A stretch of 64,000 nucleotides of DNA from Candidatus Multivoradales bacterium (GTDB lineage: Bacteria; Acidobacteriota; Thermoanaerobaculia; Multivoradales; J023), in assembly GCA_965248925.1 (NCBI GenBank), contig CBDFLE010000006.1, positions 928,001-992,000 of the forward strand, written 5' to 3'. This document shows positions 3,801 to 42,160 of this stretch, piece by piece. Under the pieces are notes generated by a model. That model did no database searches. It was not told the DNA's origin and saw nothing but the letters and a program-made list of their open reading frames with translations. The position numbers were made by a program, and so were the translations under genes. Position 1 is the stretch's first letter, and each line of letters begins with the position of its first letter.

Positions 3801-4736
3801 CTATCCGGGCGCCACGGACTCCAGAGCCCGAACAAAGGGCATCGCTGGAGGAAAACTTCCGTCGGGGAAACTGGCAGAGCAATCATCTGCCCTCAAGCGC
3901 TCGGCAGCAACGCGATAGGCGGCGACGAATTCAGCATACGCGCTCTCCAGCCGCCGCCGCTGGCGCCGGCTCCAGGCGTGGAAACGCGGTGCCGGTGACC
4001 TTCTTACCTGACTCGGCCGGTGGTGGGGATGAACTCTCCGAGCACGACGGGGACCTATTGGCTCAGTGCCGCGTTCGGCGTGCATGGTCAGGGTCTGCTT
4101 TTCGATCTCCTCAATCAAGCTCCGCACTCGATCTTGCCGTGCATCTGGTGACAGATGCCGCCAACAAGGTAGCGGCTGGAGCGTGACCTCCATCTCTGTG
4201 ACGAACTCTCTTGGAGATGGAGCTTCCCTCCGTTGCCGGGCGGCGAATTCCCGACTCCGGTCGAACCAGGTGCCACGTAGAGGCTCGCCGGTCAGAAGCG
4301 TCCCGACCGAGTTCACTCCAGGCCAACAAGCTGGTGAGTAGACAACTCCCTCCTTGGCACCATGGCTCAGCAAGTAACGGAGGCGAGCGATTTGAACCAC
4401 GGCCTCATCAGCGACCACAATGGCACGGTAGCGACGGTTGAAGATCGTCCCTGGCCAGTCGTGTAGCTTGCCGATCTCTTTCGACAGGTTAGTGTTGAGG
4501 TGCTTCATGAAGCTCGCCAACCGTTCGCTATCCACTGGCGAAAGTAGAAGGTGGTAGTGGCTGGAGACCACCACGACGGCGTGAATGTCGACGGCGAACA
4601 GACCGCGAGCCTTGGCCAGGCAGCCAACGAAGATCTCGTTCAACTGCTGTCCTGGTCGCAACAAAAAGCGGCCCTGGATGGTTCGACAGGTGACTTCGAC
4701 CAGCATCCCAGAGCGGGGCAAGTAGCGTAGATTTCG
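3801..4736 (-). CDS. REP-associated (Y1/IS200-like HUH) tyrosine transposase, body; native start separated by the prophage
   Basis: RNLRYLPRSGMLVEVTCRTIQGRFLLRP; HUH motif SSHYHLL; RLRYLLSHGAKEG; WPGVNS. Lies next to the hairpin array. The first codons (ATG GGA CGA AAT CTA CGC TA) are at 42068-42049. Confidence 0.85.
   Translation of the reverse strand, partial: RNLRYLPRSGMLVEVTCRTIQGRFLLRPGQQLNEIFVGCLAKARGLFAVDIHAVVVVSSHYHLLLSPVDSERLASFMKHLNTNLSKEIGKLHDWPGTIFNRRYRAIVVADEAVVQIARLRYLLSHGAKEGVVYSPACWPGVNSVGTLLTGEPLRGTWFDRSREFAARQRREAPSPREFVTEMEVTLQPLPCWRHLSPDARQDRVRSLIEEIEKQTLTMHAERGTEPIGPRRARRVHPHHRPSQVRRSPAPRFHAWSRRQRRRLESAYAEFVAAYRVAAERLRADDCSASFPDGSFPPAMPFVRALESVAPG
4723..4736. other. Prophage att core, left junction (TAGCGTAGATTTCG)
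   Basis: Identical to 42049-42062. Confidence 0.88.
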
Positions 4737-4764
4737 GATCTGCGTTTGTTTGCCGCCACTTGCG

Positions 4765-5059
4765 TGGCACCTGTCCAATCCCTGCTCGTGGTGCTCGATC
4801 GCCCGATCGACCTCGCCCAAACGCGTGTAAGTGTTGCCCAGGTTGCCGAGGTGTCTCGCCTCGCCGCGGCGATCGCCGATCTCCCGAGAGATCTTCAGTG
4901 CAGGCTCGTAGTGCTCGATCGCCCGATCGGCCTTGCCCAAATCCCCGTAGGCTGCTCCCAGAAGACTTCGGGAAGGAGATCGCGGACTACTTGGCGCTCA
5001 GGACCGAGCCCTCCAGGCGAAGCAATGAAGATTCGATACTTGGTGATCTGCTCTGCCAC
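4765..5059 (-). pseudogene. Relic of a DUF4062/TIR-like + TPR gene (internally deleted)
   Basis: GTG at 5059 gives AEQITKYRIFIASPGGLGPERQVV (DUF4062-like start). It is joined out of frame to TPR repeats AYGDLGKADRAIEHYE...GEARHLGNLGNTYTRLGEVDRAIEHHEQGL. Confidence 0.65.
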
Positions 5060-5122
5060 GGAACAACTCTCCACGATACGCAATACGTTTGCGCAGTAGG
5101 GTACCACCCTTGTAGCCGACGC

Positions 5123-5341
5123 TTATATCCCAAGTGGCCCGTCTAGCCGTCGCTGGCGTTCGTCGACGCGCACCTCGAGAGCCGTAAGCCGGGCCAAGAA
5201 CTTGCTGTCTTTGAGCGCCTGCACCTCGTCGCTCAGATGGTCGACAGCCGACTTGAGCCGGGCAGCGAACCAGATCGCAGCGCCAAGCTCTGTGGCCAAG
5301 AACAGCGTGATGGGCACCACCCACCCTGGCAAGTCAAACAT
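5123..5341 (-). CDS. Small single-TM coiled-coil phage protein (holin/XhlA-like candidate)
   Basis: 72 aa, N-terminal hydrophobic helix then a heptad-like tail; directly follows the tape measure gene. Confidence 0.5.
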   Translation of the reverse strand: MFDLPGWVVPITLFLATELGAAIWFAARLKSAVDHLSDEVQALKDSKFLARLTALEVRVDERQRRLDGPLGI

Positions 5342-5358
5342 ATTCGGTCCCTCTCTCG

Positions 5359-11994: not shown

Positions 11995-11996
11995 CG

Positions 11997-13208
11997 CTAG
12001 TTCGCAAAGACGATGTCGGTTACGTGGACCAGGCCAGCACCAGAGACATGACGAGGATTGAAGGTCAAGTTGTCTACCATTGACTCGCCGTCCTTCTTGA
12101 GCCCGTCAGTGCTCTTTGCGTCCGAGATCTGGGCGGCTTCCATCCAGATGTAGCGCACGCCGGTTGGAGTGCGAATGCCAAACCCAAAGGGCTCTTCTGA
12201 GTTCGGATCCTCAGCCGCGTCTAGCAATGCTTCAATGTCGGCGCCTCCGTCTCGGAACGCTTTTAGATCAGCTTTACAAGTAAACTCGCCGTCTAAAATC
12301 ATGTCGACAGGGTCGACACCGTTGCCACCAGCGCCTGCACCGTAGGTAGCCAGCAGCGGGTTCTCCAATGAAACACCAAGCTCTTCGATTCTAAGATCGG
12401 TGAATTCATTGCCGTAGCGGAGACCGAGGTTACTTCCTGGAGTGTTGAGCGGGTCCGTGGCGTGAGCCAGGAAATCAAACGAGGTGTCTACCGGAGCTTC
12501 GGTCGAGCCATTAAGCAGCTGGGCAATCAGCCTCTTTTCCTTTCGACCACCTACGAAGCTCATGTCCTGCGTCATGATGCCATCACCGCCTTTCAGCGAC
12601 CAGGCACTGCAACCCAGGCCATTGTACTCGAATCCACGTCCTCGAGTGGCGTCCCACTGTTCGGCCGTGATGCTCAGTCGATCTTTGCCAAGCACCAGAT
12701 CTCTGGTTCGGTAAACCTTGACATTGTCTCCGGCCGCTTCGTCCACCACCAAATCGAATGCGGGGTCTAGATTCAGGTCGTCTCCATCAACACTCAGCAC
12801 ATGAGCTAGAAAGGCAGGCCCATTGACGCCAACGGCAAAGCCCTGGACCCAAACAAATCCGCCGCTGATGTTGCCCCATCCACCGGGTTTTACTAGCTTG
12901 TTGTCCACAGCAGAAGCTGAGATATCAATACCCTCGGCCGAAACGGATTCAGACCATGTGTTGCAGAATGCAGACTGCATTTCTATCAAATGCGTCTGCA
13001 AGAATGCGTCGGCTGTTGCCGACCCTGAAACCTCAATTTTCTCAGCTGGGTTACTCCGCCGCTGCCGGTCTCGGTTTGCATCGTTCGGAGTGCCTCGTTT
13101 CAGGCTACTCTGGATCGAGAAGTCCGTGTATTCGTAGAACTGCAACGCGCCCGCAGGACGCACACCGTAGGTTTCTTCAAGCGCTAAGCGCACCGACATA
13201 TTGGCCAT
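11997..13208 (-). CDS. Major tail tube protein
   Basis: N-terminal LALEETYGVRP typical of tube proteins; position before the chaperones. Confidence 0.75.
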   Translation of the reverse strand: MANMSVRLALEETYGVRPAGALQFYEYTDFSIQSSLKRGTPNDANRDRQRRSNPAEKIEVSGSATADAFLQTHLIEMQSAFCNTWSESVSAEGIDISASAVDNKLVKPGGWGNISGGFVWVQGFAVGVNGPAFLAHVLSVDGDDLNLDPAFDLVVDEAAGDNVKVYRTRDLVLGKDRLSITAEQWDATRGRGFEYNGLGCSAWSLKGGDGIMTQDMSFVGGRKEKRLIAQLLNGSTEAPVDTSFDFLAHATDPLNTPGSNLGLRYGNEFTDLRIEELGVSLENPLLATYGAGAGGNGVDPVDMILDGEFTCKADLKAFRDGGADIEALLDAAEDPNSEEPFGFGIRTPTGVRYIWMEAAQISDAKSTDGLKKDGESMVDNLTFNPRHVSGAGLVHVTDIVFAN

Positions 13209-13217: not shown

Positions 13218-13637
13218 CTAGGTAGGTCGTTGGTCGTAGCGGACAAACGTTGCGATGAAGTCTGTCCTGTGTTTGTTGATCTCCACCTCGTCGCCCATGT
13301 CGTGGGCGCGGAAGGAGCGGAACATTAGCGGTTCGAGCGTGTTAGCTAGCTCGAGTTCGAATGCCTGACGCAAGCGATCGAGCTTTGCGGTTCCCGTGCC
13401 GCGGGGCACCATGCACATCAGGGTCAGTGTGCCGAAGCTCTCAAACGTGTTGTTGCCAGCCCGGCTACCTCGCTGTTGCGTTGATCCGAAGCTAACCTCA
13501 GCTAGGGCATACCCATGGGGGCGGCTCTCATTTTCTGGGTCACCTGGGAGGTTCTGACGATCGAGCACGGGAATCTGAGCACCGAGACCAAGTGCTCGAT
13601 CGAGCGCCGATCGGCGCGCCTGCTCGTAAGTGATCAC
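13218..13637 (-). CDS. Tail terminator-like protein
   Basis: 139 aa, VPRGTGT motif, position in the neck/tail block. Confidence 0.6.
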   Translation of the reverse strand: MITYEQARRSALDRALGLGAQIPVLDRQNLPGDPENESRPHGYALAEVSFGSTQQRGSRAGNNTFESFGTLTLMCMVPRGTGTAKLDRLRQAFELELANTLEPLMFRSFRAHDMGDEVEINKHRTDFIATFVRYDQRPT

Positions 13638-14068
13638 CGGAATCTCTCCAGAGCTTCAGCGATGAACAGGTCGACCCAATTGTGAGGAATCTGAATGGAC
13701 CACTTGTGGTATGCCAGCCGGCGCCCCTGAGGGCTGTTGTTGACGATGCCAAGGTCCATTCCTGGTCTCCACCTGACCAAGATCTCGACCAAGCCCGCGC
13801 CGCCACCACCTACGCCGTAAGGAGGCTCTGGAACGCTGCCAACGAAGAATGCCCAGGACCCGGCGAAGCGACCAGGCTGGTAGCCCGCAGGGGGAGCATG
13901 GTTGCTACCCCAAGCTGCGGTGTTGCCAACAGGGGAGGCTGTCCGCGCTGCATCAATAAGCGCTTTCAGGATCTTGGCAATCTCCGTTCGGATGGCAATT
14001 CCTTGCTGGACCTCCATTGCTATCGCCAGCTTGCGGCCATCTTTGAGATCGTAAGCACCGTTGATCAT
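13634..14068 (-). CDS. HK97 gp10-like neck protein
   Basis: SPVG...GRFAGSW...IVNNSP motifs. Confidence 0.65.
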   Translation of the reverse strand: MINGAYDLKDGRKLAIAMEVQQGIAIRTEIAKILKALIDAARTASPVGNTAAWGSNHAPPAGYQPGRFAGSWAFFVGSVPEPPYGVGGGGAGLVEILVRWRPGMDLGIVNNSPQGRRLAYHKWSIQIPHNWVDLFIAEALERFR

Positions 14069-14445
14069 GCGGCCACCTCCGTCAGCTCTAGGGTGTAGCC
14101 GATGAGGGTGGTGTCGTCAGGCGCGTGGCGCTTCGGTCTAGCAGCGATCTCCCACAGCCGGCCAGCGGGCGAGCGCAGACGGTGGCCCTTTCGGGGGCTG
14201 ATATTCTCGAGCCCCTCGGGCGACACCTTGGCTCGGGTGCGGTCGGTCTCTACCCAGACCCCCTCGCGCAGCTCCCGCACCGCGGTGCCGAGGCGCACTC
14301 GTAGGCCAGACACCTCGCCGAGGCTGCGCCACTCGCTCTCACCCGGCCCAAGCTCGACCAGCTCGCGGCGGATCAGCACGAAGTCTCCGCCGAGCTGGCG
14401 ACCCAGGCTCGTCATGGCCGCCTGTAGCTGGCCTGGCAGGCTCAT
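14065..14445 (-). CDS. Head closure / head-tail joining protein
   Basis: Position and size (126 aa); translationally coupled on both sides. Confidence 0.5.
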   Translation of the reverse strand: MSLPGQLQAAMTSLGRQLGGDFVLIRRELVELGPGESEWRSLGEVSGLRVRLGTAVRELREGVWVETDRTRAKVSPEGLENISPRKGHRLRSPAGRLWEIAARPKRHAPDDTTLIGYTLELTEVAA

Positions 14446-15044
14446 CGGTATCTCCGAGCCAGTCGCTCGGCAGCGGCCGGTAGGACGCGCCCCTCATGCC
14501 CTGCGAAATAGCTAACAGACGCTTGCTCGTCTGCAACCCGTCGAACGGCAGCTTGTCGCGAGAGATCCCCTCGATACCAGCTCTCGGCCGTGAGGATGGC
14601 TGCGTCGCGGAGGTTTGCAGGAAGCTGTTGCCAATCTGGGGCGCCCTCGCCGTCGCCCCATCCATACCACCCACCAGCGTAGATCACCCGGTGGGTGTAG
14701 GGGTCGCCGCCAGCCGGTGTTCGGTGTTGGAGGTTGCGGGCGGCGGTGGGTACCGGCCACCCTTCCTGACAGTAGAGCGTCTGCCGGCGATCGCCGCGAA
14801 CCTGGTACAGGTCTGGCGAGATCTCCTCGCCGGCAACAGTCTCCACCCGCACCACGTCGGTCACCGGCCAATGGGATAGGAAGAGCTGGCCACCACCAGG
14901 AGGAGTGACCAGCTCTTCAACCTCTCGACGAAACACCGGACGGACGGTGCCGTCCGTCCCTTGCAGCACTTCGGCCGACGACCGCAGCACGGCATCTAAC
15001 GCAACGCGGTGCGCTTCGACATCGAGCCGCATCTGCGCCGCCAC
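14442..15044 (-). CDS. Head-tail connector (gp6-like)
   Basis: LFLSHWPVTDV, VIYAGGW, LPANLRDAAI motifs. The start may lie further upstream (CTG at 15107). Confidence 0.7.
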   Translation of the reverse strand: MAAQMRLDVEAHRVALDAVLRSSAEVLQGTDGTVRPVFRREVEELVTPPGGGQLFLSHWPVTDVVRVETVAGEEISPDLYQVRGDRRQTLYCQEGWPVPTAARNLQHRTPAGGDPYTHRVIYAGGWYGWGDGEGAPDWQQLPANLRDAAILTAESWYRGDLSRQAAVRRVADEQASVSYFAGHEGRVLPAAAERLARRYR

Positions 15045-15850: not shown

Positions 15851-17215
15851 TCAGACATCTGCTAGCTTCACACGAGCGAAGGCATCGTCCTTCATCGGCA
15901 TTGCATCGCGCCACAGTCTGCCAACGAAACCTGTTTCGTTGGTGTCGGAGTACTTCTCATGAAGTACCTGGATCTGCAGGCCCTTCCACTCGGCGATCCA
16001 ATAGTAGAAGAAATCGCCGAAAACTAGAACATAGGAACCTGGAGCAAAGGCATTGGGAGCGAAGTCGCAAAGACGTACAGGACGCCCCATCAGCTTGTCC
16101 GGCTCACCCTCGACCACTGATTCTTTCCAGATAAAGTCCCCGTTTCCGTTCTTCTTGTTGGCGACGTGCTCAAGCACATCGGTATGGCCAACCCATGTGC
16201 CTTTCTGCCTATGCTTCTCGGGTACCCGATTCTTGGCGTGCCTGAGCGCCTCGAAGGTCAGCGCGTCGGGCGTGTTGTACAGCGAGAAATCTCGACTGAT
16301 TGAAATACCATTGGGAGACGGCACGAAGATCCCGAGCGGCTCGTCAGCGCCGTTGCCTGTCATGTATTCCTGCTCGCTAGACTCGGAGAACTCCAAGTTC
16401 AACTGCTCTCGCACGAGCTGATCTGCTGGGATGACACTCTCAGAAAGCATCACTGTTTCGATCTGCGTGCTGAGCTTGGTCATTGTCGGCTTCAGCTTTC
16501 GCACGCCGATTTCGAGGCTACCCTGTGCCCCCTTTCCCCGAGGACGCACTGGCCGCGGTGCGCCGATCCGCTTCTTGCGATAAGGGCTCCCGATCTCCTG
16601 GAGCGTCTGCATTGGCCACATACGAGAGAGCTGTCGCATGAAGATGCTGGCATCAGCCTCCGTCAGAAACTCAGCCAACATCCGTGGAGGAGGCATCAGG
16701 TAGTGTCCACCGGAATCGGTCTCTTGGTTGAGCGCCATGATTTCGCTTGGGCGGACATTCGCGACCAAGGACGAGCGAAACGCCCGGAGGTACTCATCCG
16801 AACCTAGCTGTTCGTTGTAGTTGGCGAGCGCAGCTACTACTCGCCGGCTCGTACGTCGGCGCGCCTGGCCGGTCAGACCAGAATCATCGAGCAACTCGGG
16901 GAGCCAATCGGGAGTCTGACGGCCGGACGACTGCGGGTGCTGATCGCTGTCCGGCTCGTTGCTGGGACTGGTTACACGACCCTGAAGCGCGGCAAGAATT
17001 TCGGAGCGTTCTTCGTCGCCCTCATGGGCTTGCTCAAGCGCGACAAGATCGTTGGCGGCCTGGATTGAGCGCGACAAGTTTTTGATGTCATCAAGCAGCC
17101 GGACGTGCTGCTCGTGCTCCTCTGTTGAGAGTGGTCGGTTTTCACTTTCTGCGCGAGTATGGATCGCGCGAGCTTGAGCTAGTAGTTGCGTGCGTTCTTG
17201 GTGTATTTCTGGCAA
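15851..17215 (-). CDS. HK97-family major capsid protein
   Basis: GGHYLMPP, MTGNGADEPLGI, KNGNGDFIW, LMGRPV, VFGDF. TTG start at 17215 with a GGAGG RBS 7 nt upstream. Confidence 0.92.
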   Translation of the reverse strand: MPEIHQERTQLLAQARAIHTRAESENRPLSTEEHEQHVRLLDDIKNLSRSIQAANDLVALEQAHEGDEERSEILAALQGRVTSPSNEPDSDQHPQSSGRQTPDWLPELLDDSGLTGQARRRTSRRVVAALANYNEQLGSDEYLRAFRSSLVANVRPSEIMALNQETDSGGHYLMPPPRMLAEFLTEADASIFMRQLSRMWPMQTLQEIGSPYRKKRIGAPRPVRPRGKGAQGSLEIGVRKLKPTMTKLSTQIETVMLSESVIPADQLVREQLNLEFSESSEQEYMTGNGADEPLGIFVPSPNGISISRDFSLYNTPDALTFEALRHAKNRVPEKHRQKGTWVGHTDVLEHVANKKNGNGDFIWKESVVEGEPDKLMGRPVRLCDFAPNAFAPGSYVLVFGDFFYYWIAEWKGLQIQVLHEKYSDTNETGFVGRLWRDAMPMKDDAFARVKLADV

Positions 17216-17252
17216 CGTAGTGCCTCCGGTTTGGTGGGCCGGTAGGCACAAC

Positions 17253-17306
17253 AAAAAAACGCAACTGGCTACCGACCTCGGTTTCGAGGTGGTAACAAGC
17301 TGCGTC
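17253..17306 (-). terminator. Long stem-loop followed by U7 in the capsid leader (terminator/attenuator-like)
   Basis: GACGCAGCU-U-GUUACC-ACCUCG-AAAC-CGAGGU-C-GGUAGC-C-AGUUGCGUU-UUUUU on the minus strand. Confidence 0.65.
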
Positions 17307-17427
17307 TCATCGGAGGTGGGGCCTGCTACGATCAACGCGCCGGTTTCGCCATTGGGCGTTGAGCGCGATGTTCCCAATTCAGTTTTCTATGCAGTTGGGC
17401 ATTGCCCAGCCGCCGATTCACACCATA

Positions 17428-18192
17428 TCAGATTTCTCCTGCTTCGATCGATGCTTCTAACAGATCGACTTCCGCAGCTGCCACGGTGTGATGAAAAGGC
17501 TCAGTGCAAACCGCGTTGCTTTCTGAGGTTTCAGCGTCTGGCGGTGATGACTTCGACTTCCTCGGCAGCAGATCTCTGAGAGCCTTGGGCAGCTCTCTGT
17601 ACTCCGCTGCCATCGGCTTCACCATGCTAGCTGTAATCTTCACTTTATCCTCCAGAACACTGGTGACAAATCCGCGTTCTAGGGCCTCTTCCGAGTCCAT
17701 CCAAGTGGTTTCGGCCATCAACGAGACAATCTCTTCCTCACTGAGTTTCGAGTGTCTTCTGTAGGCACGGGCGAGATTCTTTGCCATCGAGTCCATGAGG
17801 TCAGCCATCTTGCGGAGTTCTCCGGACTCCGCACCAAAGAGGTTCACCCAGGGGTTGTGGATCATCACATACCCGTTTGAGACGATCTCGATCGTGTCTC
17901 CGGCCATGCAAATTGAGGAACCTGCCGAGGCGGCAATGCCTTCGATGCGCACGTTGACTTTCGCAGGATGAAGGAGCAAGCTGTTGTAGATTGCAAACGC
18001 TTCGAAGACATCACCCCCTGGGCAGTTCACATTCAGCTGGATCGAGTCGATAGCCCCAGCGTTCTTGAGCTGGCGCCGGAAGTCCCTGGCGGTGACGCCA
18101 AAGAAACCTCCAACGTAATCATATAGATCAATCGACAAGGATCTGTTGCCGCCCTTGGCGGCGGCCTGAACAGGTTGAAACTTGATTGGCAC
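17428..18192 (-). CDS. ClpP-type head maturation protease
   Basis: VNCPGGDVFEAFAIYN, EGIAASAGS, MIHNPW, ETTWMDSEEALERGF. Confidence 0.92.
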   Translation of the reverse strand: MPIKFQPVQAAAKGGNRSLSIDLYDYVGGFFGVTARDFRRQLKNAGAIDSIQLNVNCPGGDVFEAFAIYNSLLLHPAKVNVRIEGIAASAGSSICMAGDTIEIVSNGYVMIHNPWVNLFGAESGELRKMADLMDSMAKNLARAYRRHSKLSEEEIVSLMAETTWMDSEEALERGFVTSVLEDKVKITASMVKPMAAEYRELPKALRDLLPRKSKSSPPDAETSESNAVCTEPFHHTVAAAEVDLLEASIEAGEI

Positions 18193-22005: not shown

Positions 22006-22029
22006 GGTTCCTAGGCATCCTCTATCTTT

Positions 22030-22120
22030 TTTTGCTAAATTCGCAGCCGCACACAGTTGAGGGAGACGCGGTTTCCATAGCTGTTTGCCTATGGAATTCC
22101 GATGCATGCCCCCTATTGTC
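22030..22120 (-). other. Candidate cos/packaging-site region
   Basis: Non-coding gap between the HNH gene and terS, the usual cos position in HK97-like phages; GGGGG...ACCGCG...GCGAATTT on the minus strand. The exact cut site cannot be seen. Confidence 0.35.
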
Positions 22121-22239
22121 GAGGTCTCTAGAACCTGCTTTGCGCGGATATGCCCCAGGGGCGCACATGGCGTAACAGCTCTCAGACCACCAGAACAGGC
22201 TCTGGGCACTCTGCGCGCATTGGCTCGCAAGTGGCGACA

Positions 22240-27162: not shown

Positions 27163-27166
27163 CAGA

Positions 27167-29505: not shown

Positions 29506-30675
29506 CTAACCCGTTGCGACTTTGGCATCGGATCCCTCCAGTTGTTCGAGATCCTCAAAAAATGCAGCGATTGCGAGACTCATCTCGTGGCAATCGAGCG
29601 CATTCACGCGCTCCCGGATCTCGTGGGTTGATAGCCCCCTCAGGGCTTGGAACTCTGCGACCGAATCTGGCGCGATCTCACCAGCCCGGAGAATCAGTAG
29701 ATCGAGCACCCTGTCGAGTGATTCTCGCGACCGCGACTCGTCCCGAGGCGGTACCTGCCAGTCCGGAGATTCCCTCGCGGTCACCAACCGGCTCAACGGC
29801 TTGCTGAAATAGCCGATCGCTCCGATGTCGGGCAGCCGGCCCGTCTCCTCGCCCAACAGCGCCTCGAACATGCTCACCGCGACCCCAGTCAAGTACCACT
29901 TGGCAATCAGCCGCCGCTCGTGCCGAGCGCACTCGGTGGCGATATCCAACCGCTTCGCCGTGAGCCAGGCTCGCCAGATCGCCGAGGAGTACTCGACCGG
30001 AGCCGATGAAGGGGTTTGGGGTAGGGGTTTAGATCTTGAATACCCCAAACCCCTAACCCCTCTGACCCCCCTACCCCCCACAGCGACCCGTGGCGTGTCG
30101 CTGCCGACCCGTGGCGTGTCGCTGCCGACCCGTGGCGTGTCGCTCGGCCGACCCGTGGCGTGTCGCTCGGCCGACCCGTGGCGTGTCACCGACCCGTGGC
30201 GTGTCGCTCGGCCGACCCGTGGCGTGTCGCTGAGAGGTGGGACGACGGCTCCGGCGATCGAGTGATAAATCACCTCGACCTCGGCGAGCATCGCTGATTT
30301 GAGCGCGGCGCGGTCTCGTACCAGGGCTCGTTTGCGACGGTTCCGGGCTCGATTTGACGCAGGGGACACCTTGGGGTCCTGGCCGTCTGAGTAGGTGCTG
30401 CTAGTCAGCAAACGGGCCTTCGACTGCCACTGGATCCAGTCCGCCTCCAGCAACTGCTGTAGTCCGATCTCGACCATGTCGGCTGGCATGCCTGCTGGCA
30501 GCATCAGCAGTAGTTGCTGGCCGGGATCACCTCCAGGGCAGTGGATGTGCCCAGCCGTCGACAGCAGTAGCACGAGCTGGCAGCGCAGGCACTCGCCCTC
30601 CCATCCCCAGCGCCGAAGCTCGTCGTAGAGCCAGACGCGTCGCGTGTCGCCGTAGCTGACGGTCTGGCCGGCCAC
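29506..30675 (-). CDS. Putative replication initiator containing an internal iteron array
   Basis: Early-operon position, internal DNA repeats as in lambda O; GTG at 30675 overlaps the methylase stop. Confidence 0.55.
   Translation of the reverse strand: MAGQTVSYGDTRRVWLYDELRRWGWEGECLRCQLVLLLSTAGHIHCPGGDPGQQLLLMLPAGMPADMVEIGLQQLLEADWIQWQSKARLLTSSTYSDGQDPKVSPASNRARNRRKRALVRDRAALKSAMLAEVEVIYHSIAGAVVPPLSDTPRVGRATRHGSVTRHGSAERHATGRPSDTPRVGSDTPRVGSDTPRVAVGGRGVRGVRGLGYSRSKPLPQTPSSAPVEYSSAIWRAWLTAKRLDIATECARHERRLIAKWYLTGVAVSMFEALLGEETGRLPDIGAIGYFSKPLSRLVTARESPDWQVPPRDESRSRESLDRVLDLLILRAGEIAPDSVAEFQALRGLSTHEIRERVNALDCHEMSLAIAAFFEDLEQLEGSDAKVATG
30084..30228. repeat. Seven copies of CGACCCGTGGCGTGTC (putative origin iterons)
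   Basis: Copies start at 30084, 30105, 30126, 30149, 30172, 30190 and 30213. Confidence 0.85.
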
Positions 30676-31508
30676 TAAACAGCCTCCAGGGTCATCTGAT
30701 ACCCACTCGCTGCTGCGCATCTAGGATTGATCCAGACCGCCTCAACCTTGGTGCCGTGGTCCGTCAAGGCGAGCCGAGTGCGCGAGGTCCACCCGCGCTC
30801 CTCGAAAAGACGCGCGTAGAGGCCAGAGGGATACCCGCTCAAGACCACGTAGCCCTTGAGATTGACCAAGACCTCAGCAAGCGCCTCATGATCCGACTCG
30901 CCGCAAAACTCGTGCTCGTAGCCCTTCTCTGCCCACCGCTTATTCCGCGTTTCCGCGAGGTACGGCGGGTCGACGTAGTGGAGCGTCCGCGGACTGTCGA
31001 AGCGCTGCAAAACAATCGCTGCGTCGTCTTGCTCGATCATCACTTGCCGCAGTCGCTTGACGATCGGATCGATCTTGATTGCGCCCAACCACGAGCCTAC
31101 GGCGCTCGCGCGTGACGAATCGGACCTGCAAAACCGCCAACCGGACAGCCGTTGCGGCCGAGGGCCCCCGCGAGCCTGCCAGGCTCTGACCATGTACCGC
31201 CTAGCCCGCTCTACCGGATCCTCTGCTAGCTGATAGCTGGCAATCATCTCTGCGCGCGAGTAGGGGGTCAGCTCGAGCAAGTGCTGAAGCTCGGCGGGAG
31301 AATCGCGGAGAACGCGAAAGAGGTTTACGACCTCACCATCGAGGTCATTGATGACCTCGTGCTGCGCCGGCCGCTTACGCAGCAGCACACTTGCACCGCC
31401 ACAGAATGGCTCGCAGTAGCACCCGTGCTCTGGGAAGTGGGTGATGATCCACGGAGCAATACGCCATTTGCCGCCGAAGTAGCGCATCAGTGGACGGTTG
31501 ACGGTCAC
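30675..31508 (-). CDS. D12-class N6-adenine DNA methyltransferase (Dam-like)
   Basis: MRYFGGKWRIA, EPFCGGASV, EVINDLD, YVDPPY. Confidence 0.93.
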   Translation of the reverse strand: MTVNRPLMRYFGGKWRIAPWIITHFPEHGCYCEPFCGGASVLLRKRPAQHEVINDLDGEVVNLFRVLRDSPAELQHLLELTPYSRAEMIASYQLAEDPVERARRYMVRAWQARGGPRPQRLSGWRFCRSDSSRASAVGSWLGAIKIDPIVKRLRQVMIEQDDAAIVLQRFDSPRTLHYVDPPYLAETRNKRWAEKGYEHEFCGESDHEALAEVLVNLKGYVVLSGYPSGLYARLFEERGWTSRTRLALTDHGTKVEAVWINPRCAAASGYQMTLEAV

Positions 31509-32713
31509 GCCGCAGCCCTCCGCATCGCTACAACCAGCCGCCGGCAAATCCACTCAACGACAGGGACCGCGACGGCATTGCCGAGCGCGTGGTACCGCGC
31601 CGCGTCGCTTATCTCCACCCCGTCAGCGCCCTCAGCCGTCCAGTCGTCGGGGAACCCCTGCAACCTCTCGAATTCGAGCGGGGTTAGCCGCCGGGGTGCA
31701 ATCGTTTCTTGGGCAATGCCGATTCGCTCGGGGCGGTATCCCAGGGGGCCCGGTGTGTCACCAACACATCCCAAGCCGTGATCGCGGAAGGCCACGATTG
31801 CGGACGAAGAGCCGTCTGAGTCCAGGGCACCGGGTATCTGGCCGCTGATCGGGTCCTGTAGAGCGTTGAAAGCCACAATTTCCGAAGAGGCGGCGATCGT
31901 CGGAGATTGCTGCCCGGGCACGCTGCGGTTGTCTGGGCTGGTGATCTGCGATACGTCCACCACCAGCGGTGAACCGCGGCTGGTACCGTCCTCCGAGGAG
32001 TCGGCCCGCGCTGTCAGCGGGACGACGAGTTGCCCGAGCTGACCGTCGTCGAGCCGATAGCCACTGCCTCCAGGGCTGCCAGCAGTGAGGCAGGTAGCTG
32101 GCGCCCCCGTTTCTTCGCGTGGCGGAGAATCCCCCGGCAAGCAACCGGGCTCAAAAAGTATTTCGGGGGCGGGGAAGTCTCGAGGACCTGCGACAGCGAA
32201 CAGCCTTTTGCGTCGCTGGGCCAGTCCGAAATATTGAGCGTCCAGCACGCGCCAAGCGACCCATCGGTAGGGACCAACGCAAACTCCTCCGGTTTGCCAG
32301 CGCCTGGGAGTTTCCGGGAGAACTCCGGTGAAGCCCTCCAAAGAAATCGCCCAATCCCCTCCCGAATTACTGGAGAGCAAACCAGGGACGTTCTCGAACA
32401 GAATCCACGCCCGAGGGCGCGAATCAGCAAGACGTATGAACTCGTAAAAGAGCTTGGACTTGCCGCCATCCAATCCCGCACGAGCGCCGGCCACTGAAAC
32501 GTCCTGGCAGGGAGATCCGCCGCAAATAAGGTCAACTGCTGGCAAGCTCTCAACATCACGGACATCCTCCAACCGGTCGACCGATGGCCAATGCCGAGCG
32601 AGGATCGATCTGCACTTGGTGTTGATCTCGACCTGTAGCGCAGGATCAAATCCGGCGCGATCAGCGGCCAAATCGAATCCACCGATACCGGCGAATAGAG
32701 ATGCAACGCGCAT
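31505..32713 (-). CDS. C5-cytosine DNA methyltransferase
   Basis: SLFAGIGGF, GGSPCQDVS, ENVPG, QRRKR, RRLTPLEFERLQGFP, LGNAVAVPV. Confidence 0.95.
   Translation of the reverse strand: MRVASLFAGIGGFDLAADRAGFDPALQVEINTKCRSILARHWPSVDRLEDVRDVESLPAVDLICGGSPCQDVSVAGARAGLDGGKSKLFYEFIRLADSRPRAWILFENVPGLLSSNSGGDWAISLEGFTGVLPETPRRWQTGGVCVGPYRWVAWRVLDAQYFGLAQRRKRLFAVAGPRDFPAPEILFEPGCLPGDSPPREETGAPATCLTAGSPGGSGYRLDDGQLGQLVVPLTARADSSEDGTSRGSPLVVDVSQITSPDNRSVPGQQSPTIAASSEIVAFNALQDPISGQIPGALDSDGSSSAIVAFRDHGLGCVGDTPGPLGYRPERIGIAQETIAPRRLTPLEFERLQGFPDDWTAEGADGVEISDAARYHALGNAVAVPVVEWICRRLVVAMRRAAA
32014..32706 (-). CDS. Nested alternative-frame ORF (EcoHK31I beta-polypeptide-like)
   Basis: Ends in WTLNISDWPSDAKGCSLSQVLET...KYFLSPVACRGILRHAKKRGRQLP, a motif I recall from overlapping ORFs in C5 methylase genes. 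True start is uncertain. Confidence 0.6.
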   Translation of the reverse strand: MHLYSPVSVDSIWPLIAPDLILRYRSRSTPSADRSSLGIGHRSTGWRMSVMLRACQQLTLFAADLPARTFQWPALVRDWMAASPSSFTSSYVLLIRALGRGFCSRTSLVCSPVIREGIGRFLWRASPEFSRKLPGAGKPEEFALVPTDGSLGACWTLNISDWPSDAKGCSLSQVLETSPPPKYFLSPVACRGILRHAKKRGRQLPASLLAALEAVAIGSTTVSSGNSSSR

Positions 32714-36885: not shown

Positions 36886-37217
36886 CGAGACTCCTCCTCT
36901 GCTAGGCGCGACAGCCGCTCGACGTACCCCGCGCAGCTGTGGCGGTGAGCGCCCAGGGCCAGCCTGCTCAGCAGGCGCCACGACGCGATATGGCTCAGCT
37001 GCCTCTGCTCGCGGCATCTGAGCCACGCACTAGCGTGCTGCAGTGGCTGACCGGCGGGGCGGATGTAGACGGATCGGCCGACGTGGCGATACCAAGGCCA
37101 GCCGAAGACCGTGGCCCGCGGAATCTCAGTTACCGGGTCGCGGTGCATGACGACGCGGTGGGTCGAGGCTCCGAGCAGCGGCCGGGCATCCGGCAGGATG
37201 AGCGCCGGTGCGTTCAT
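36882..37217 (-). CDS. Hypothetical phage protein
   Basis: AGGAGG RBS, ATGA-coupled. Confidence 0.55.
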   Translation of the reverse strand: MNAPALILPDARPLLGASTHRVVMHRDPVTEIPRATVFGWPWYRHVGRSVYIRPAGQPLQHASAWLRCREQRQLSHIASWRLLSRLALGAHRHSCAGYVERLSRLAEEESR

Positions 37218-37828
37218 CTCCGGTCCTCCTGGACGAGAAAATCCTCGACGCCCAGTGCGATGCCCTTGGCGAATAGGCTCTGGACGACGCCATCCGTCAG
37301 CAGTCGCCGGTCATCTTCGTTGCTGATAAACGGCAGCTCGACCAGCGCTGCCGGTGCATAGGTGAGGCGCAGGACACCGAGGCGCGGACGGTCTTTGATC
37401 CCGCGCCACTTGGGAGGTACCAGGCGCCGACCCCAGAGCAAGTCATCGTGCTCTGAGAAGCCTTGCAGGCCATCGACCAGCGAGACCTTGATTTGCTCCG
37501 CAAGGCGCGCCCCCGCCCCATCCGGGCCAAAGCGCAGGACCTCGAGCCCGTGGGCTCGAAGGTCCTGGTGAGCGTTGGTGTGGATGCTGACGAACGCCTG
37601 GGCGTCCACCAGATTGACGAGCTGGGCTCGATGGGACACCCCCGCCGTTTGCCCAAGTGCCCGCGTGAAGCGGACGCGGTGGCCGGTCCACCGAAGCAGT
37701 GTTGCCACCGCCACAGCGACTGGCCATGCAATGTCGGTCTCGCGCAGCCGTGGGCTCACATCGTGCGCTACCGCTCCAGGATCCCTACCTCCGTGACCGG
37801 GGTCGATCACCACCAGCGAGCGACTCAT
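37214..37828 (-). CDS. N-acetylmuramoyl-L-alanine amidase (Amidase_3)
   Basis: VIDPGHGGRDPGA, E, FVSIHTNA, PAALVELPFISN. Confidence 0.92.
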   Translation of the reverse strand: MSRSLVVIDPGHGGRDPGAVAHDVSPRLRETDIAWPVAVAVATLLRWTGHRVRFTRALGQTAGVSHRAQLVNLVDAQAFVSIHTNAHQDLRAHGLEVLRFGPDGAGARLAEQIKVSLVDGLQGFSEHDDLLWGRRLVPPKWRGIKDRPRLGVLRLTYAPAALVELPFISNEDDRRLLTDGVVQSLFAKGIALGVEDFLVQEDRR

Positions 37829-38169
37829 TGGACACCGTCCCGCACCACCCAAGAATCTAGCGGGCCCCGGAACTCAATCTCAGCAGGCAGGCCCCTAGAT
37901 CCGCCCTCAACGGCTGTCTCGAACTGCCCCTGGGCAGAGTCCGCCGCGAACAGGCTGTCTATCCCCGTTCGGTCGCACGCCGATAAGTGGCGGAGGTCCA
38001 CCACCAAGCGCCGAGCAGTGGCGCGGCGGGCAGCAGTAGGCTCGGCGGCGCTCACCTCATCGCCGTAGATCACCCCGCCGCCGAGGTCAGCCTCGGTATC
38101 CGCGCCGGTCCACGCCGGCTCACGCTGATGCTGCATCGCACACCTCCTCGCTAGTGGCGAGCCGGCCAC
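37825..38169 (-). CDS. Hypothetical phage protein
   Basis: Its stop overlaps the amidase ATG; likely start at MQHQREP after GAGGAGG. Confidence 0.45.
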   Translation of the reverse strand: MAGSPLARRCAMQHQREPAWTGADTEADLGGGVIYGDEVSAAEPTAARRATARRLVVDLRHLSACDRTGIDSLFAADSAQGQFETAVEGGSRGLPAEIEFRGPLDSWVVRDGVQ

Positions 38170-38337
38170 CTAAGGACCTGCCGACTCGCCCAGAACGCAA
38201 TACCAAACAGGCACGCAACAGCGCGCACCAGTCGGCCCACCCACACCGGACTCGCTCGGGAATATGGAATCCCTGCATTTTTGGAGTGGATGAGCCGGCT
38301 GCTAAGCGCCGGTGTGGTTTGGTGGTGGTGGAGCTGC

Positions 38338-38673
38338 TCATCGAGCACCTCCTCCGGTCCAGGCTGCTTTTGCAAGTGCAGGATTCGCGAAACGCCCACG
38401 CTGGCGCAGTGCCCATGAGCGAAATTCGTCGCCAGTCAAGCCCTCGGCAATGGCGCGACCGCTGTCACCAACGATGAGAGGGTGGAAATCTGGCAGCTGG
38501 TCGGCATAGCGGCGTGCAGTGGTGCGGCTCTTGATGCCGAGCATCGCCATTACCTGCTGTTTAGTGACGACATGCTGGGAACAAGCCATCTCGGCAAGGC
38601 AAAGCCGTAGTGCGACCAGCTCGGCCATTATTCTCTGGTGCCTCGCAAGCTCGCTGTCACATGTCCGCTTCAC
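38338..38673 (-). CDS. Small HTH (AlpA/Xis-like) protein
   Basis: VTKQQVMAMLGIKSRTTARRY; coupled to the cro-like gene. Confidence 0.5.
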   Translation of the reverse strand: MKRTCDSELARHQRIMAELVALRLCLAEMACSQHVVTKQQVMAMLGIKSRTTARRYADQLPDFHPLIVGDSGRAIAEGLTGDEFRSWALRQRGRFANPALAKAAWTGGGAR

Positions 38674-39203
38674 GAGCCAAGCTCCACCGCTTGAACGCCA
38701 ATCTGGATTTCAGGTTCCAGGTGGAAACTTGATTTGGAAGAACACCGAAAATCGCTACACAGACCAGGAACTTCAATTGGGGCTACCGGGCGCCCCAGAA
38801 AGGCTGACCACGACCCAGGCCAGTTGCAGGCCGGGAAAGCAGGAGCCCGGCCAGGAACAAGCGTCAAAACAGAGCCACCAACCTCGGGCGTTACGTACTT
38901 GACCTCCCCGGCAACCCTGGCGACGATGACATCGTGGCGACGTAGAGCCTCTTCGGCCGCTTCGCTCCAGCTCTGGAAACAAGTTGCTGACCAAAGCTGC
39001 CGAGGAACACCGAGGACTAGCTCAAAGAGCAGGGCCTCTCGGAGATAGACATGCTCAACTACGCCTCTTTCAAGCTTGGACAGGCGCATGGGCGAAATAT
39101 CAAGTTCAATCCCAAGACTGGAAAGAGTATGGCGAGCTGTCTTCCTGGCTCGCCTAAGCCTCTTGCCCGGTGTCTTACATGACTCTTTCTGTTTCTTATC
39201 CAT
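38670..39203 (-). CDS. Cro-like XRE HTH regulator
   Basis: GKRLRRARK...LSSLGIELDISPMRLSKLERG; ATG at 39203 just after the leftward promoter. Confidence 0.75.
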   Translation of the reverse strand: MDKKQKESCKTPGKRLRRARKTARHTLSSLGIELDISPMRLSKLERGVVEHVYLREALLFELVLGVPRQLWSATCFQSWSEAAEEALRRHDVIVARVAGEVKYVTPEVGGSVLTLVPGRAPAFPACNWPGSWSAFLGRPVAPIEVPGLCSDFRCSSKSSFHLEPEIQIGVQAVELGS

Positions 39204-39213
39204 CTCTTTCGAA

Positions 39214-39242
39214 ATCGTATACGACTCTGTATGAATCGTCAA
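39214..39242 (-). promoter_or_regulatory. Leftward (lytic) sigma70-type promoter
   Basis: TTGACG-17 bp-TACGAT; overlaps the palindrome TCGTATACGA (39215-39224). Confidence 0.7.
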
Positions 39243-39283: not shown

Positions 39284-39292
39284 TTTATACGA

Positions 39293-39649
39293 ATGAATAA
39301 CTCGCTAATAAATGCAGCGATGGCGCTGCTCTTGAGACAATCTGGGTTCTCAAGAGCCGTGGCATCCCGGAAGATGGGGTGTACCAGCGCGTCGATGTCG
39401 AACTGGCTGAATGGCCGGACTACGCCAAGCGCGTCAAGCCTCTTTGAATTTCTGCGCGTGCTGGGCTACGATTTTCGTCATCTCCAGAGCGCGCTGGAGA
39501 GTCTCGAAAAGGAGGATGGGGCGGAACCTGTAACTGGCCTTGCCTTGGATCTGATGTCCGGGATTAGCCGCGGTGAGCTACTGAGAGTCCTCAGGGAGGA
39601 GGCTCGGAAGATGCTCACCGAAGCGGCCACTGCAACGGGAGAGGAATAG
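39293..39649 (+). CDS. CI-like XRE HTH repressor (no S24 peptidase domain)
   Basis: SRAVASRKMGCTSASMSNWLNGRTTPS; divergent from the cro-like gene. Confidence 0.8.
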   Translation: MNNSLINAAMALLLRQSGFSRAVASRKMGCTSASMSNWLNGRTTPSASSLFEFLRVLGYDFRHLQSALESLEKEDGAEPVTGLALDLMSGISRGELLRVLREEARKMLTEAATATGEE

Positions 39650-39653
39650 CATC

Positions 39654-40382
39654 ATGGGCCAGAAGTCCCAACACTCAAAGATCTTGGCGCTTGGAAAAGC
39701 GCGCTCAGAGGGTCTCTTTGAAAGTCTCTTTGAAAGTCTCTTGGATATTTGCCGAACGGCTCGCAAGTCTGGGGACGATCAGTCAGCGCTAGAAGCATTG
39801 TCGGTTGCGGCAAATTCTCCCGACAGGCTCCCGAGCACGGATTGCAGGCTCTTGCGCCAACTGGGATCGATGCGCCGAGAGCAATGTAAGCTCGACTCTG
39901 CCTGCGATGCCTTTGGACTAGCCTCCTGCATCGCAGCGGTCGCAGGAGACAGGGTTCAATGGGCTAGGGCTGAGACAGAATTTGGGCTCTGCTTGGTCGA
40001 AGCAGGGAAGAACGACCAAGCAAGGGACGTTCTGAGAACAGCCTTGGCCGGGTTGGGACGGATGGTGTCTCAACGTCGCCACCGTGCTTCTGCGCATCTG
40101 GGACTAGCAACCGTGGATGTCGAGTCGGGTCTATACGGCGCCGCAGAATCCCACTACCGGCGAGCCGAATCGTTAGCTGAGTCCCAGGAAGACAGAGCAA
40201 AAATCCTGGCCAGCCTTGGTCGCGTGCAGATCATTCGTGGTCGCCTTGACGATGGCATTGCATCGCTACGAGACGCCCTAACGATCACGCCGAAGCTCCA
40301 AGACCGAATTGCCATCGAGATTTTGATCGAGCAGTTCGCCTCCGAAACGGCAGCCGAAGGCGAACTCAGTGCCGGCGCTTAG
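39654..40382 (+). CDS. TPR-repeat protein
   Basis: Repeated helical pairs (ASAHLGLATV...AAESHYRRA; AKILASLGRV...GIASLRDAL). Confidence 0.7.
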   Translation: MGQKSQHSKILALGKARSEGLFESLFESLLDICRTARKSGDDQSALEALSVAANSPDRLPSTDCRLLRQLGSMRREQCKLDSACDAFGLASCIAAVAGDRVQWARAETEFGLCLVEAGKNDQARDVLRTALAGLGRMVSQRRHRASAHLGLATVDVESGLYGAAESHYRRAESLAESQEDRAKILASLGRVQIIRGRLDDGIASLRDALTITPKLQDRIAIEILIEQFASETAAEGELSAGA

Positions 40383-40720
40383 CCGCTCGGATCGATCAAG
40401 AATGGATTCTTCATCTGCTATTCCTCCTGATTGTTCCGGGTGGCCGCCATTGACCACTCATCGCCGTCTAACAGGCGAGTGTCTGATTTTGGATGCGTTT
40501 CGCGATGAGATCGCGAGGATATTCCCTAAATGACTGAAACTAGTGACCCCTTCTTCTGCGCTAAGCGAGTGCCCTACCCGCCTGGGCAAAATTCCGACAA
40601 GCCCCGGTCTCTTCGGTGGGGTCCATACATTGAGCCAGTGGGCCGCCGTCGAGTACTGCATCGGGGTCCTCGGGTCCAGCCTGTCGGTGTTGTCGGGGCG
40701 TAGGATCTGTTGGTAGTACA

Positions 40721-41896
40721 GTGAGGAAGCCTATCCTTGCCGAGCGGAATATCCGCCGACGCGGTAGCAGCTGGCAGCTCCGGATCTACTCGATGGGGCT
40801 TGGCCGTCAGGTCGTCGTCACCCACGGCAATCTGCCCCAGCTAGTAGCCAAGCGAGACGAGATCGAGGCCGACAACCTGTGCCGCAAAATCGGGGCATCT
40901 CCAGTACTGCGCTACCGGCCTGATCTTGGCAGCGTCCTGGAGCAGTTCCAACTCGAAATCGATCGCCGCGAGTGCTCTGGCGCGATCACTAGCGGCACTC
41001 TACGGACTTATGGCAACCACATCTCGGCATTCCAGCGATGGTCGGAAGAAACGGGGATGGATAGGTATGCCGCGGAAGACTTGCGGCGAACCCATGTGGA
41101 GCAATATTGCGCCTGGAGGGGGACCCACACGACGAGGGTTGGAACTAGCAAGGTGCGAGGCTCAAGCATGCGCACTGAACTCAGCACCCTCCGGCAGGCC
41201 CTCCGCCACGCCGAGATAACAGTCAACTGGCGCGCACCTCATTTCCTCAGCAAGGCGAGGGGTAAGAGGATCCTCTCGGCCGCAGAATTTTTCTCTTGGC
41301 TGGAGTGCATGCCCGTGGGCAGCCTGGAGCGCACCGCAGCAGAGCTAGCCTGGCGTACCGCGGCGCGTCCGAGCGACTGGATCAGGTTTCGGTGGAGCAA
41401 CGTCGACCGAGAAAGGGGGCTGCTGAAATTCGACGTCCAGAAACTCCGAGGCCAGCGCCATAGCGTCCCGCTGACTGACGAGATCCTCCATCATTTGAAC
41501 GCGTGGAGAACCAGCTCTGAGAGAGGCAACATCCTGCGAGGGCTGTGGTCACTGCATGCAGATCGACAGGCAATGCTTCGTGACACTATTTTCATCACAG
41601 GGACCACAGCGAGGCCCCGACGCCTGCGCACGAACTCACTCCGCAGGCGATGGGTCCAAGCTAGCAAGTCAGCGGGAATAGACCCGCCCATTAAAGCGGC
41701 CGGGGTTCTACGCAATCAGTTCATCGCCCTCGCCTTAGCGAGCGGCAGCAGCGCTTACGCTGTCGCTCGCCACGTTGGGCACAGCAGCCTCAATCTGTTG
41801 ATCCGGTACGCAGAGCAGGATTTGCCAACCGAACTCATCCAAGAAATGACCGGAAAAATCGACGAGCGCCGACGCGTTATCGTCCAAGAGCGCTAG
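40721..41896 (+). CDS. int: Tyrosine recombinase (prophage integrase)
   Basis: AWRTAARPSD (R), K, VLRNQF (xxxR), VGHSS (H), LIRYA (Y); sits next to the right att site. Confidence 0.85.
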   Translation: MRKPILAERNIRRRGSSWQLRIYSMGLGRQVVVTHGNLPQLVAKRDEIEADNLCRKIGASPVLRYRPDLGSVLEQFQLEIDRRECSGAITSGTLRTYGNHISAFQRWSEETGMDRYAAEDLRRTHVEQYCAWRGTHTTRVGTSKVRGSSMRTELSTLRQALRHAEITVNWRAPHFLSKARGKRILSAAEFFSWLECMPVGSLERTAAELAWRTAARPSDWIRFRWSNVDRERGLLKFDVQKLRGQRHSVPLTDEILHHLNAWRTSSERGNILRGLWSLHADRQAMLRDTIFITGTTARPRRLRTNSLRRRWVQASKSAGIDPPIKAAGVLRNQFIALALASGSSAYAVARHVGHSSLNLLIRYAEQDLPTELIQEMTGKIDERRRVIVQER

Positions 41897-42048
41897 AGAA
41901 TCTCGGCCAATCCTGTCCAACGAGGTGGCCGAATTTGGCCGAAATTTGGCAGGGCAGCATATATCCTGACTTTGTGAGAATCATCCAACTGCCTCAAAAC
42001 AATAAACTTACAGTGATTTTGTAGACAAGCAAATTCGCTGTGACTAAA

Positions 42049-42062
42049 TAGCGTAGATTTCG
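42049..42062. other. Prophage att core, right junction; on the minus strand it carries the transposase start ATG-GGA-CGA-AAT-CTA-CGC
   Basis: Identical to 4723-4736; ~150 bp downstream of the integrase. Confidence 0.88.
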
Positions 42063-42160
42063 TCCCATACCCACAGAGACGCGAAAGGTTCTTCGCTTCT
42101 TGCCTCTGACCTCGAGCGTGACTATCAACGGCTCTACACCCTGACGGCGGGAGCACGCTT

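Follow-up and report, generated by a model that had tools for sequence, protein, structure and literature searches.

A Prophage With a Rarely Encountered Tyrosine Integrase Splits a Putative RayT-Like Y1/HUH Transposase Gene in a Multivoradales Genome

Introduction

The stretch of DNA analyzed here, referred to throughout as the window, comprises 64,000 nucleotides of contig C6 (C6:928001–992000) of the 7.98-Mb genome assembly of Candidatus Multivoradales bacterium, and all coordinates given below are positions in the window unless prefixed with C5, C6, or a locus number beginning with L. Within it, a block of phage genes is inserted at the very 5' end of a gene which, judging from sequence comparisons, would encode a divergent member of the Y1/HUH (IS200/RayT-like, COG1943) transposase superfamily. 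The gene encodes a 313-aa protein, and the prophage splits it after codon 2, within a 14-bp core that covers codons 3–7, so that the interrupted gene body is the full protein minus its first two codons. The borders can be placed to the base by comparison with an intact paralogue on the same contig, whose N-terminus is the normal one for the family. We consider it likely that a phage with an integrase of a rare lineage landed in the gene of another mobile or selfish element and formed an ordinary gene-disrupting lysogen, and that the gene is a landing site and not a host switch.

Results

The Core Repeat and the Empty Site

The 14-mer TAGCGTAGATTTCG occurs at exactly two sites in the window, both on the plus strand (4723–4736 and 42049–42062), and this remains the case when one mismatch is allowed; none of 100 dinucleotide-preserving shuffles of the window contained two or more matches to it. 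Across the whole 7.98-Mb genome there are three exact copies, namely the cores of the left and right attachment sites (attL and attR) and C6:4208586–4208599 at the 5' end of the paralogue, while the reversed pattern, used as a control in the genome, gave 0 matches. The two cores lie 37,326 bp apart (42049 minus 4723), and the stop codon of the integrase is 152 bp from the right core. On the minus strand the right site (42068–42049) reads ATG GGA followed by the core, and the left site, from 4736 downward, reads the core followed by CTTGCCC. An earlier reading made from the sequence alone (hereafter the sequence-only reading) had placed the 14-mer at these two sites, the right one just past the integrase, had quoted the minus-strand sequence of both junctions, and had called the element a prophage of about 37.3 kb; both sites and both junction sequences were reproduced, and the spacing, the identical cores, the integrase, and the hallmark genes for virion and packaging functions agree with the prophage call.

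The most direct view of the insertion comes from the intact paralogue (locus L002), which lies 3.3 Mb away on the same contig and is uninterrupted, with 90% protein identity over 311 residues and 91.5% DNA identity. A paralogue was used for the comparison of occupied and empty sites because the genus is represented by only this genome among the genomes searched. L002 starts with ATG GGA and the 14-bp core (MGRNLRYLPRSGMLVEVTC), giving the protein N-terminus MGRNLRYLPRSGMLVEVTCRTIQGRFLLRP (MGRNLRY...), and a stop lies two codons upstream of its ATG. When the locus is compared with the genome by BLAST it splits in two: positions L002 2390–2516 (upstream region, ATG, and core) match the window at attR with 87% identity, positions L002 2500–3879 (core, gene, and downstream repeats) match it at attL with 86% identity, and the two matches overlap by the core. 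In a three-way alignment the homology stops exactly at the core on either side. The 110-bp region upstream of L002 matches the DNA to the right of attR at 86–87% identity, and the 26-bp sequence predicted for the empty attachment site (attB) is intact and unoccupied at L002.

A chance repeat, with the true borders of the prophage elsewhere, is an explanation we regard as practically negligible. By our own estimate a 300-bp stretch beside an integrase and a 64-kb window would share some 14-mer a few per cent of the time, which lends this explanation some initial weight, but the paralogue comparison sets both break points at the core to the base, and elsewhere in the genome only the paralogue carries the repeat; the explanation is refuted by the three-way alignment and the BLAST split of the paralogue locus. 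Nor is attL an artefact of assembly, because the left junction is crossed by contigs from all four public sequencing runs that were considered (one sample from one study; rare forms are dropped in contigs). No tRNA and no Rfam RNA was found at the integration site, and none of the 146 CRISPR spacers of the genome matches the window (the best agreed at 19 of 34 nt).

The sequence-only reading had also predicted that rejoining the two junctions would give a normal-looking, in-frame N-terminus, and L002 starts with MGRNLRYLPRSGMLVEVTC just as predicted. This N-terminus is typical of the family as a whole: of 13 further family loci inspected in this genome, 11 begin with M-x-R-x-(L/P)-R-(Y/H), the remaining two being a pseudogene without an ATG and a copy without its first 59 residues, and a metagenome homologue (P0005) reads ...VDMGRNLRY. 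The contig encoding P0005 was not recovered in the metagenome scan. Among 43 homologues aligned for conservation and profile analysis, conservation is at least 90% at M1 and R3 and complete at R6, and the N-terminal residues that the family conserves best are therefore those encoded by the core. The earlier proposal had been staked on intact homologues starting MGR(N/R)LRY, with which L002, P0005, the 11 of 13 loci, and the 43-homologue alignment all agree. It had further suggested looking for the 14-mer in other family copies; the 14-mer is present in L002, and no further exact copy exists in the genome. Outside this genome, the 26-mer was found at up to 3 mismatches in one of 400 other genomes of the class, at two places with 3 mismatches each. 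Two family genes in another genome (loci L046 and L047 of genome G727, in the same order) start MGRKLRYLP.

The Interrupted Gene and the RAYT Label

The target gene belongs to a sizeable family in this genome. A tblastn search of the genome with the transposase returned 22 matches, of which 11 besides the interrupted copy are near full length, and one subfamily comprises three copies with 99–100% identical DNA. The ratio of non-synonymous to synonymous substitution rates (dN/dS) of the interrupted copy relative to L002 is 0.21. A profile built from the 43 homologues matches ISDra2 TnpA (IS200/IS605, PDB 2xm3) at 8.3e-07 and the E. coli enzyme 4er8, which is associated with repetitive extragenic palindromes (REPs), only weakly (0.021). 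Residues H62, H64, and Y123 are invariant in the 43 sequences and align with ISDra2 TnpA; we take H62 and H64 to be the HUH motif and Y123 to be the catalytic tyrosine in the C-terminal helix. With the Pfam family Y1_Tnp (PF01797) the window open reading frame (ORF) scores 19.4 bits and L002 scores 20.9 bits, both under the gathering score of 23 bits, and yet the same family matches 42 of the 43 aligned homologues at E ≤ 1e-2 (best 1.2e-9). We therefore place the protein in the Y1/HUH superfamily.

Whether the protein should be called a REP-associated tyrosine transposase (RAYT), as it was in the sequence-only reading, is a separate matter. We applied the criteria of Bertels and Rainey 2011 (PMC3116915) together with the cut-off of 80 bits of the NCBIfam family REP_Tyr_transpos (NF047646). 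According to that paper, RAYTs occur as a single copy or with each copy distinctive, and the 16-mers flanking them are repetitive, extragenic, and palindromic. The window protein reaches 32.4 bits with NF047646, below the cut-off, it carries an additional C-terminal region of about 170 aa, and the “RayT” names of its homologues are automatic IMG labels. The part of the earlier claim that stands is the assignment to Y1/HUH transposases; the score, the copy number, and the repeats all depart from the strict use of the term, and the label is only loosely justified.

The repeats beside the family genes deserve a closer description. The 14-mers of the repeats flanking the interrupted copy have at most 10 copies in the genome, all of them at the two paralogues, and the repeats beside L002 are related to those of the interrupted copy, with 88% identity. 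The array at 3323–3582 folds no better than its shuffles (z +1.53). These repeats form local tandem arrays and are not palindromic or dispersed, in contrast to the repeat pattern of RAYTs. The array starts inside the 3' end of a long hybrid histidine-kinase ORF (22–3399), and the last codons of that ORF may therefore be repeat-derived.

There is nonetheless a weak positive sign of repeat association for the family, since the motif TGGCACCTNTTT occurs 33 times across the genome, where its reversed control occurs once, and 14 of these instances have a family match within 1 kb. An element of about 20 nt, ATAATGTGCCTGGCACCT..., which has a short internal palindrome and contains the TGGCACCTNTTT motif, is present at 39 places in the genome (for example C6:1089097–1089314). 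Some of its copies stand in arrays of 5–7, and single copies are found directly downstream of several genes of another subfamily of this transposase family. The transposase family in this genome thus shows some association with short repeats. Short tandem repeats of the gctccaacaagtgc type also lie upstream of L046 in genome G727, which suggests that family genes carry local repeats.

The Integrase Lineage

It is clear that the integrase is rare. Among 1.84 billion cluster representatives, 89 proteins match it at E ≤ 1e-3, the nearest being 35% identical. There was no integrase match in 50,697 deposited phages and none in 23 other genomes of the family (E ≤ 1e-20), no relative was found in genome contigs or IMG/VR viral contigs with a single-protein query, and a word-indexed search with the integrase returned only the integrase itself. 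In 14 members of its clade, R331, H354, and Y363 are invariant, and these are presumably catalytic residues of the tyrosine recombinase. A search of 400 other genomes of the phylum with the clade profile matched 4 genomes, and a second copy was found in the present genome. The sequence-only reading had asked whether close integrase homologues also sit at RAYT 5' ends; among these distant relatives none of the five loci (four phylum genomes and the second copy here) has a RayT-like gene or fragment within 1.5 kb, and the expectation fails for them.

The second integrase of the clade (locus L026, C6:2916205–2917260, minus strand) scores 331.8 bits against the clade profile and is 28% identical to the prophage integrase. 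It is flanked by two ORFs of no known family, and a 166-nt stretch 4 kb away from it is 70% identical to early DNA of the prophage (window 38150–38309). This region may be a second, distantly related element; no attachment site was found at L026.

Phage Gene Content

The block 4737–42048 is a prophage, and by the family matches of its encoded proteins it belongs to a temperate tailed phage in which the head module is of HK97 type and the tape measure is long. The hallmark genes comprise the integrase, the small and large terminase subunits (TerS and TerL), portal, protease, capsid, tail tube, tape measure, and endolysin (Table 1). The phage is distant from those on record, as its TerL is at most 42% identical to the TerL of the 50,697 deposited phage records and its head module has only two short matches (69%) among deposited phages; no portal relative was found in IMG/VR viral contigs. 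No Dit/Tal-like distal-tail or baseplate gene was recognized after the tape measure, where there is only the 108-aa ORF and a TPR-like fragment, and no excisionase was recognized among the prophage ORFs.

Consequences at the Junctions

In the lysogen the start codon and upstream region are cut off from the gene, as the sequence-only reading had it: the ATG and 110 bp of conserved upstream DNA are found at attR, 37 kb from the gene body, and the ATG at 42068 opens just a 24-codon stub into phage DNA. At attL, the reading frame of the transposase body stays open through 82 phage-derived codons, which include a TTG at 4940 but neither an ATG nor a GTG. The TPR-like fragment that occupies this side (4737–4982) has a stop directly upstream. 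Its best host match is 45% identical and for this reason we do not think of it as a recent host capture, and its lack of an ATG or GTG means that no obvious replacement 5' end comes with the phage. If translation began internally, at M13, the invariant R6 would be lost.

The transposase gene shares its strand with the late operon, and no terminator-like site was found between 5359 and 4737, such that read-through from the late operon into the transposase body is possible in terms of predicted geometry. A scan for sigma-70-type promoters gave 0 sites at both junctions, with a model that may not fit the host organism. In neither copy does the 124-nt upstream region have a better fold than its shuffles (z −0.40 and −0.22). 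Both copies have in common a predicted stem-loop that lies a short way upstream of the start codon (window 42075–42110, minus strand, and L002:1455–1490).

Discussion

The sequence of events that best accommodates these observations would be as follows. A temperate phage integrated into one paralogue at the 14-bp core in codons 3–7, probably through recombination by its own tyrosine integrase. The ATG and codon 2 stayed with the promoter region at attR, and the intact codons 3–313 stayed at attL. Because the phage brings no replacement 5' end, the interrupted copy is uncoupled from its own expression signals and is probably silent. The disruption should cost the host little, given the 90%-identical intact paralogue and ten further near-full-length relatives in the genome. 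The core, lying in the most conserved N-terminal motif of a multi-copy and probably dispensable gene, would then simply be the landing site of the phage. Nothing speaks against the insertion itself. Four points weigh against a merely passive landing site. The interrupted body has no stop or frameshift and its dN/dS of 0.21 fits a recent insertion as well as a copy that is retained for later use; across attL the ORF continues through 82 phage-derived codons; the late operon is directed toward the gene, and no terminator-like site separates the two; and excision was looked for at the level of contigs.

The sequence-only reading had gone further and proposed an excision-controlled switch, in which lysogeny silences the transposase and excision rebuilds the gene and restarts the movement of its cognate repeats, as in what is known as regulated gene integrity. 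The geometry does allow it: the gene is disrupted without a replacement 5' end, its body is intact with the low dN/dS already given, precise excision would restore the ORF, the rejoined site would equal the 26-mer of the intact paralogue, and the concept is established for other genes (PMC10111431). We nevertheless find it decidedly improbable. Silencing one copy removes little, because L002, whose 26-bp site is still free, encodes almost the same enzyme and is flanked by related repeats (88% identical), and with this paralogue and the other copies the function of the interrupted gene is otherwise available, contrary to what a switch calls for. There is no dispersed repeat population to mobilize, the copies being at most 10 and all local; no excisionase was recognized; none of the five loci of integrase relatives adjoins such a gene; and neither an excised form nor a loose end at the core appears in the contigs of the four runs, although contigs drop rare forms. 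The REP-mobilizing switch of the earlier proposal has no support in these findings. An extension of the same idea would have the integrase lineage specialized on the invariant N-terminal M-x-R-x-L-R-Y motif of the COG1943/RayT-like family; with the promoterless gene body placed immediately behind the late operon, prophage induction or excision would then couple the transposase to the phage cycle. This would amount to a phage-controlled switch on another mobile element, with a multi-copy selfish or domesticated transposase as its landing pad, and we hold it to be improbable as well, if slightly less so.

Two further explanations concern the present state of the element. The prophage may be defective and fixed, no longer excising or forming particles, which would make the disruption permanent. 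The missing distal-tail and baseplate genes, with the 108-aa ORF alone before attL, the lack of a recognized excisionase, and the many ORFs without a family all point this way, but every recognizable gene is full length, the two core copies are identical, the integrase ORF is intact, and candidate fibre genes are present at 23070–29361, and on balance we consider a fixed prophage unlikely. It is also conceivable that the insertion re-wired the gene, with the phage arm (a 68-codon TPR-like leader from the TTG at 4940) or late read-through coupling the transposase to prophage induction. The open frame across attL and the co-strand tape-measure operon, without a terminator-like site between, would fit such a coupling; set against them, neither ATG nor GTG occurs in the extension, an open stretch this long would be in phase by chance about 1 time in 3, the TPR piece looks fragmentary (a stop directly upstream and about two repeats), and a start at M13 would lose R6. 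Re-wiring seems very improbable to us for these reasons. An ordinary gene-disrupting lysogen remains the description that we favor.

The skin element in sigK, SPbeta in spsM, and the Listeria comK phage are examples of gene-disrupting prophages in which gene integrity is regulated. Regulated gene integrity, as treated in PMC10111431, involves integration into protein genes without a replacement sequence. The present prophage resembles these cases in its site-specific integrase, its position inside a protein gene, an attP without a replacement, and an excision that would rebuild the ORF. It is unlike them in that its target is one of many paralogues with a near-identical intact copy left, that no regulated excision or host process is linked to it, and that the break falls at codons 3–7 and not mid-gene. 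A second comparison is with elements that target other mobile elements, for which PMC10111431 describes HE-PICIs in prophage late genes and the PICI EcCIDi14 in an IS110 transposase gene. Here the likeness is in an attB that is the gene of another mobile or selfish element. The differences are that the element is a full-size phage and not a satellite, that the target is of the Y1/HUH (IS200/RayT-like) type as opposed to a DDE-type IS110 or a phage late gene, and that the integrase has no match in the deposited phages.

As for the target itself, it shares with the RAYT/REPIN systems a distantly IS200-like HUH/Tyr protein, short repeats clustered by the gene, and the enrichment of TGGCACCTNTTT near family copies, and it differs from them in its 22 family matches, its score below the NCBIfam RAYT cut-off, its extra C-terminal region, and flanking repeats of the local tandem kind. 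Among solved structures the family profile matches ISDra2 TnpA (2xm3) best, and the HUH histidines and C-terminal tyrosine align in that match, whereas the protein here is twice as long, has no TnpB partner and no defined element ends that we could see, and scores just under the Y1_Tnp gathering score.

The unusual points of this lysogen are the target family and the rarity of the integrase. Our literature searches showed no earlier prophage in a RAYT or IS200-like gene, though surveys of regulated gene integrity may list one. With this prophage, a Y1/HUH (RayT-like) gene joins the few genes of mobile elements that serve phages as attachment sites. The prophage provides a base-resolved attL/attR pair for an integrase with almost no relatives, together with an unoccupied 26-base site equal to the predicted attB, and such pairs are useful starting material in the search for integrase tools and in the mapping of prophage borders. 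On present evidence no new regulatory switch is added.

Features of the Window and Other Elements of the Genome

Table 1. Coordinates, strand, and supporting matches of the features in and around the prophage (window positions).
Feature	Position	Strand	Remarks
Hybrid histidine-kinase gene left of the transposase	22–3399		ORF
Tandem repeats in units of 14, 41, and 55 nt on the downstream side of the transposase gene	3323–3582		Related units downstream of L002
Interrupted transposase gene body	3801–4736	−	Codons 3–313 and stop, no internal stops
attL core, left 14-bp copy	4723–4736		Encodes transposase R3–Y7 on the minus strand
TPR-like coding fragment at the attL phage arm	4737–4982	−	TPR_12, 8.9e-11; about two repeats
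108-aa ORF, last phage ORF before attL	4998–5324	−	No family matched
Tail tape-measure protein, 1929 aa	5359–11148	−	PhageMin_Tail; phrog_13339, 5e-54
Tail tube protein	11997–13208	−	Phage_tube_2
Tail terminator-, neck-, and head-tail-adaptor-like genes	13218–15044	−	phrog_179, phrog_169, phrog_442
Major capsid protein, HK97 type	15851–17377	−	Phage_capsid, 2.7e-30
ClpP-type head maturation protease	17428–18192	−	Family matches
Portal protein	18192–19946	−	Phage_portal, 1.2e-66
Terminase large subunit (TerL)	19927–21519	−	TerL_ATPase and TerL_nuclease
Terminase small subunit (TerS) and HNH endonuclease	21523–23070	−	Family matches
Five ORFs including an 827-aa Laminin_G_3 protein	23070–29361	−	Candidate tail-tip or fibre genes
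N6-adenine (D12, Dam-type) and C5-cytosine (Dcm-type) DNA methyltransferases	30675–32713	−	Family matches
Amidase_3 endolysin	37214–37852	−	Family match
HTH ORF of the divergent regulatory module	38670–39242	−	Family match
HTH repressor-like ORF, 118 aa	39293–39649	+	HTH_31/HTH_3
TPR protein, 242 aa	39654–40382	+	Family match
Tyrosine integrase	40721–41896	+	Phage_integrase (PF00589), 47.6 bits vs. cut-off of 27.1 bits; phrog_1
Integrase-proximal attP arm	41897–42048		A+T-richer than surroundings; tandem TTGGCCGAA-type repeat at ~41927–41950
attR core, right 14-bp copy	42049–42062		Repeat search, paralogue alignment
Orphaned 5' end: ATG GGA (42068–42063) and ~110 bp of conserved upstream DNA	42063–42172	−	Paralogue match
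Hydrolase gene right of attR	42161–42973		ORF

Some of the features in Table 1 call for a brief comment. For the five ORFs beginning at 23070, a further search gave no family beyond Laminin_G_3, and the leads from a protein atlas were below 0.9 or fell in unnamed clusters. The TTGGCCGAA-type repeats of the attP arm may be arm-type sites. Just upstream of the integrase, the HTH_31/HTH_3 ORF is followed 4 nt on, in another frame, by the TPR protein, and this pair (39293–40382) could be a split or two-part HTH-TPR regulator.

Just outside attR there are two ORFs (42970–44952 and 45222–46112, both on the minus strand), one for a 660-aa protein in which a Ser/Thr protein kinase is fused to a caspase (Peptidase_C14) domain and one for a DUF3800 protein. 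Elsewhere in the genome, a CRISPR locus at C5:1995256–2009691 holds 150 copies of a 32-nt repeat in three blocks, and one of the spacers matches the host's own chromosome at 33 of 33 positions (C5:1725512–1725544). The 14-mer ACAGTTTTGGGTCC occurs at 83 places in about 28 loci, three per locus with fixed spacings of 102 and about 555 nt, and these loci look like an insertion element of about 28 copies.

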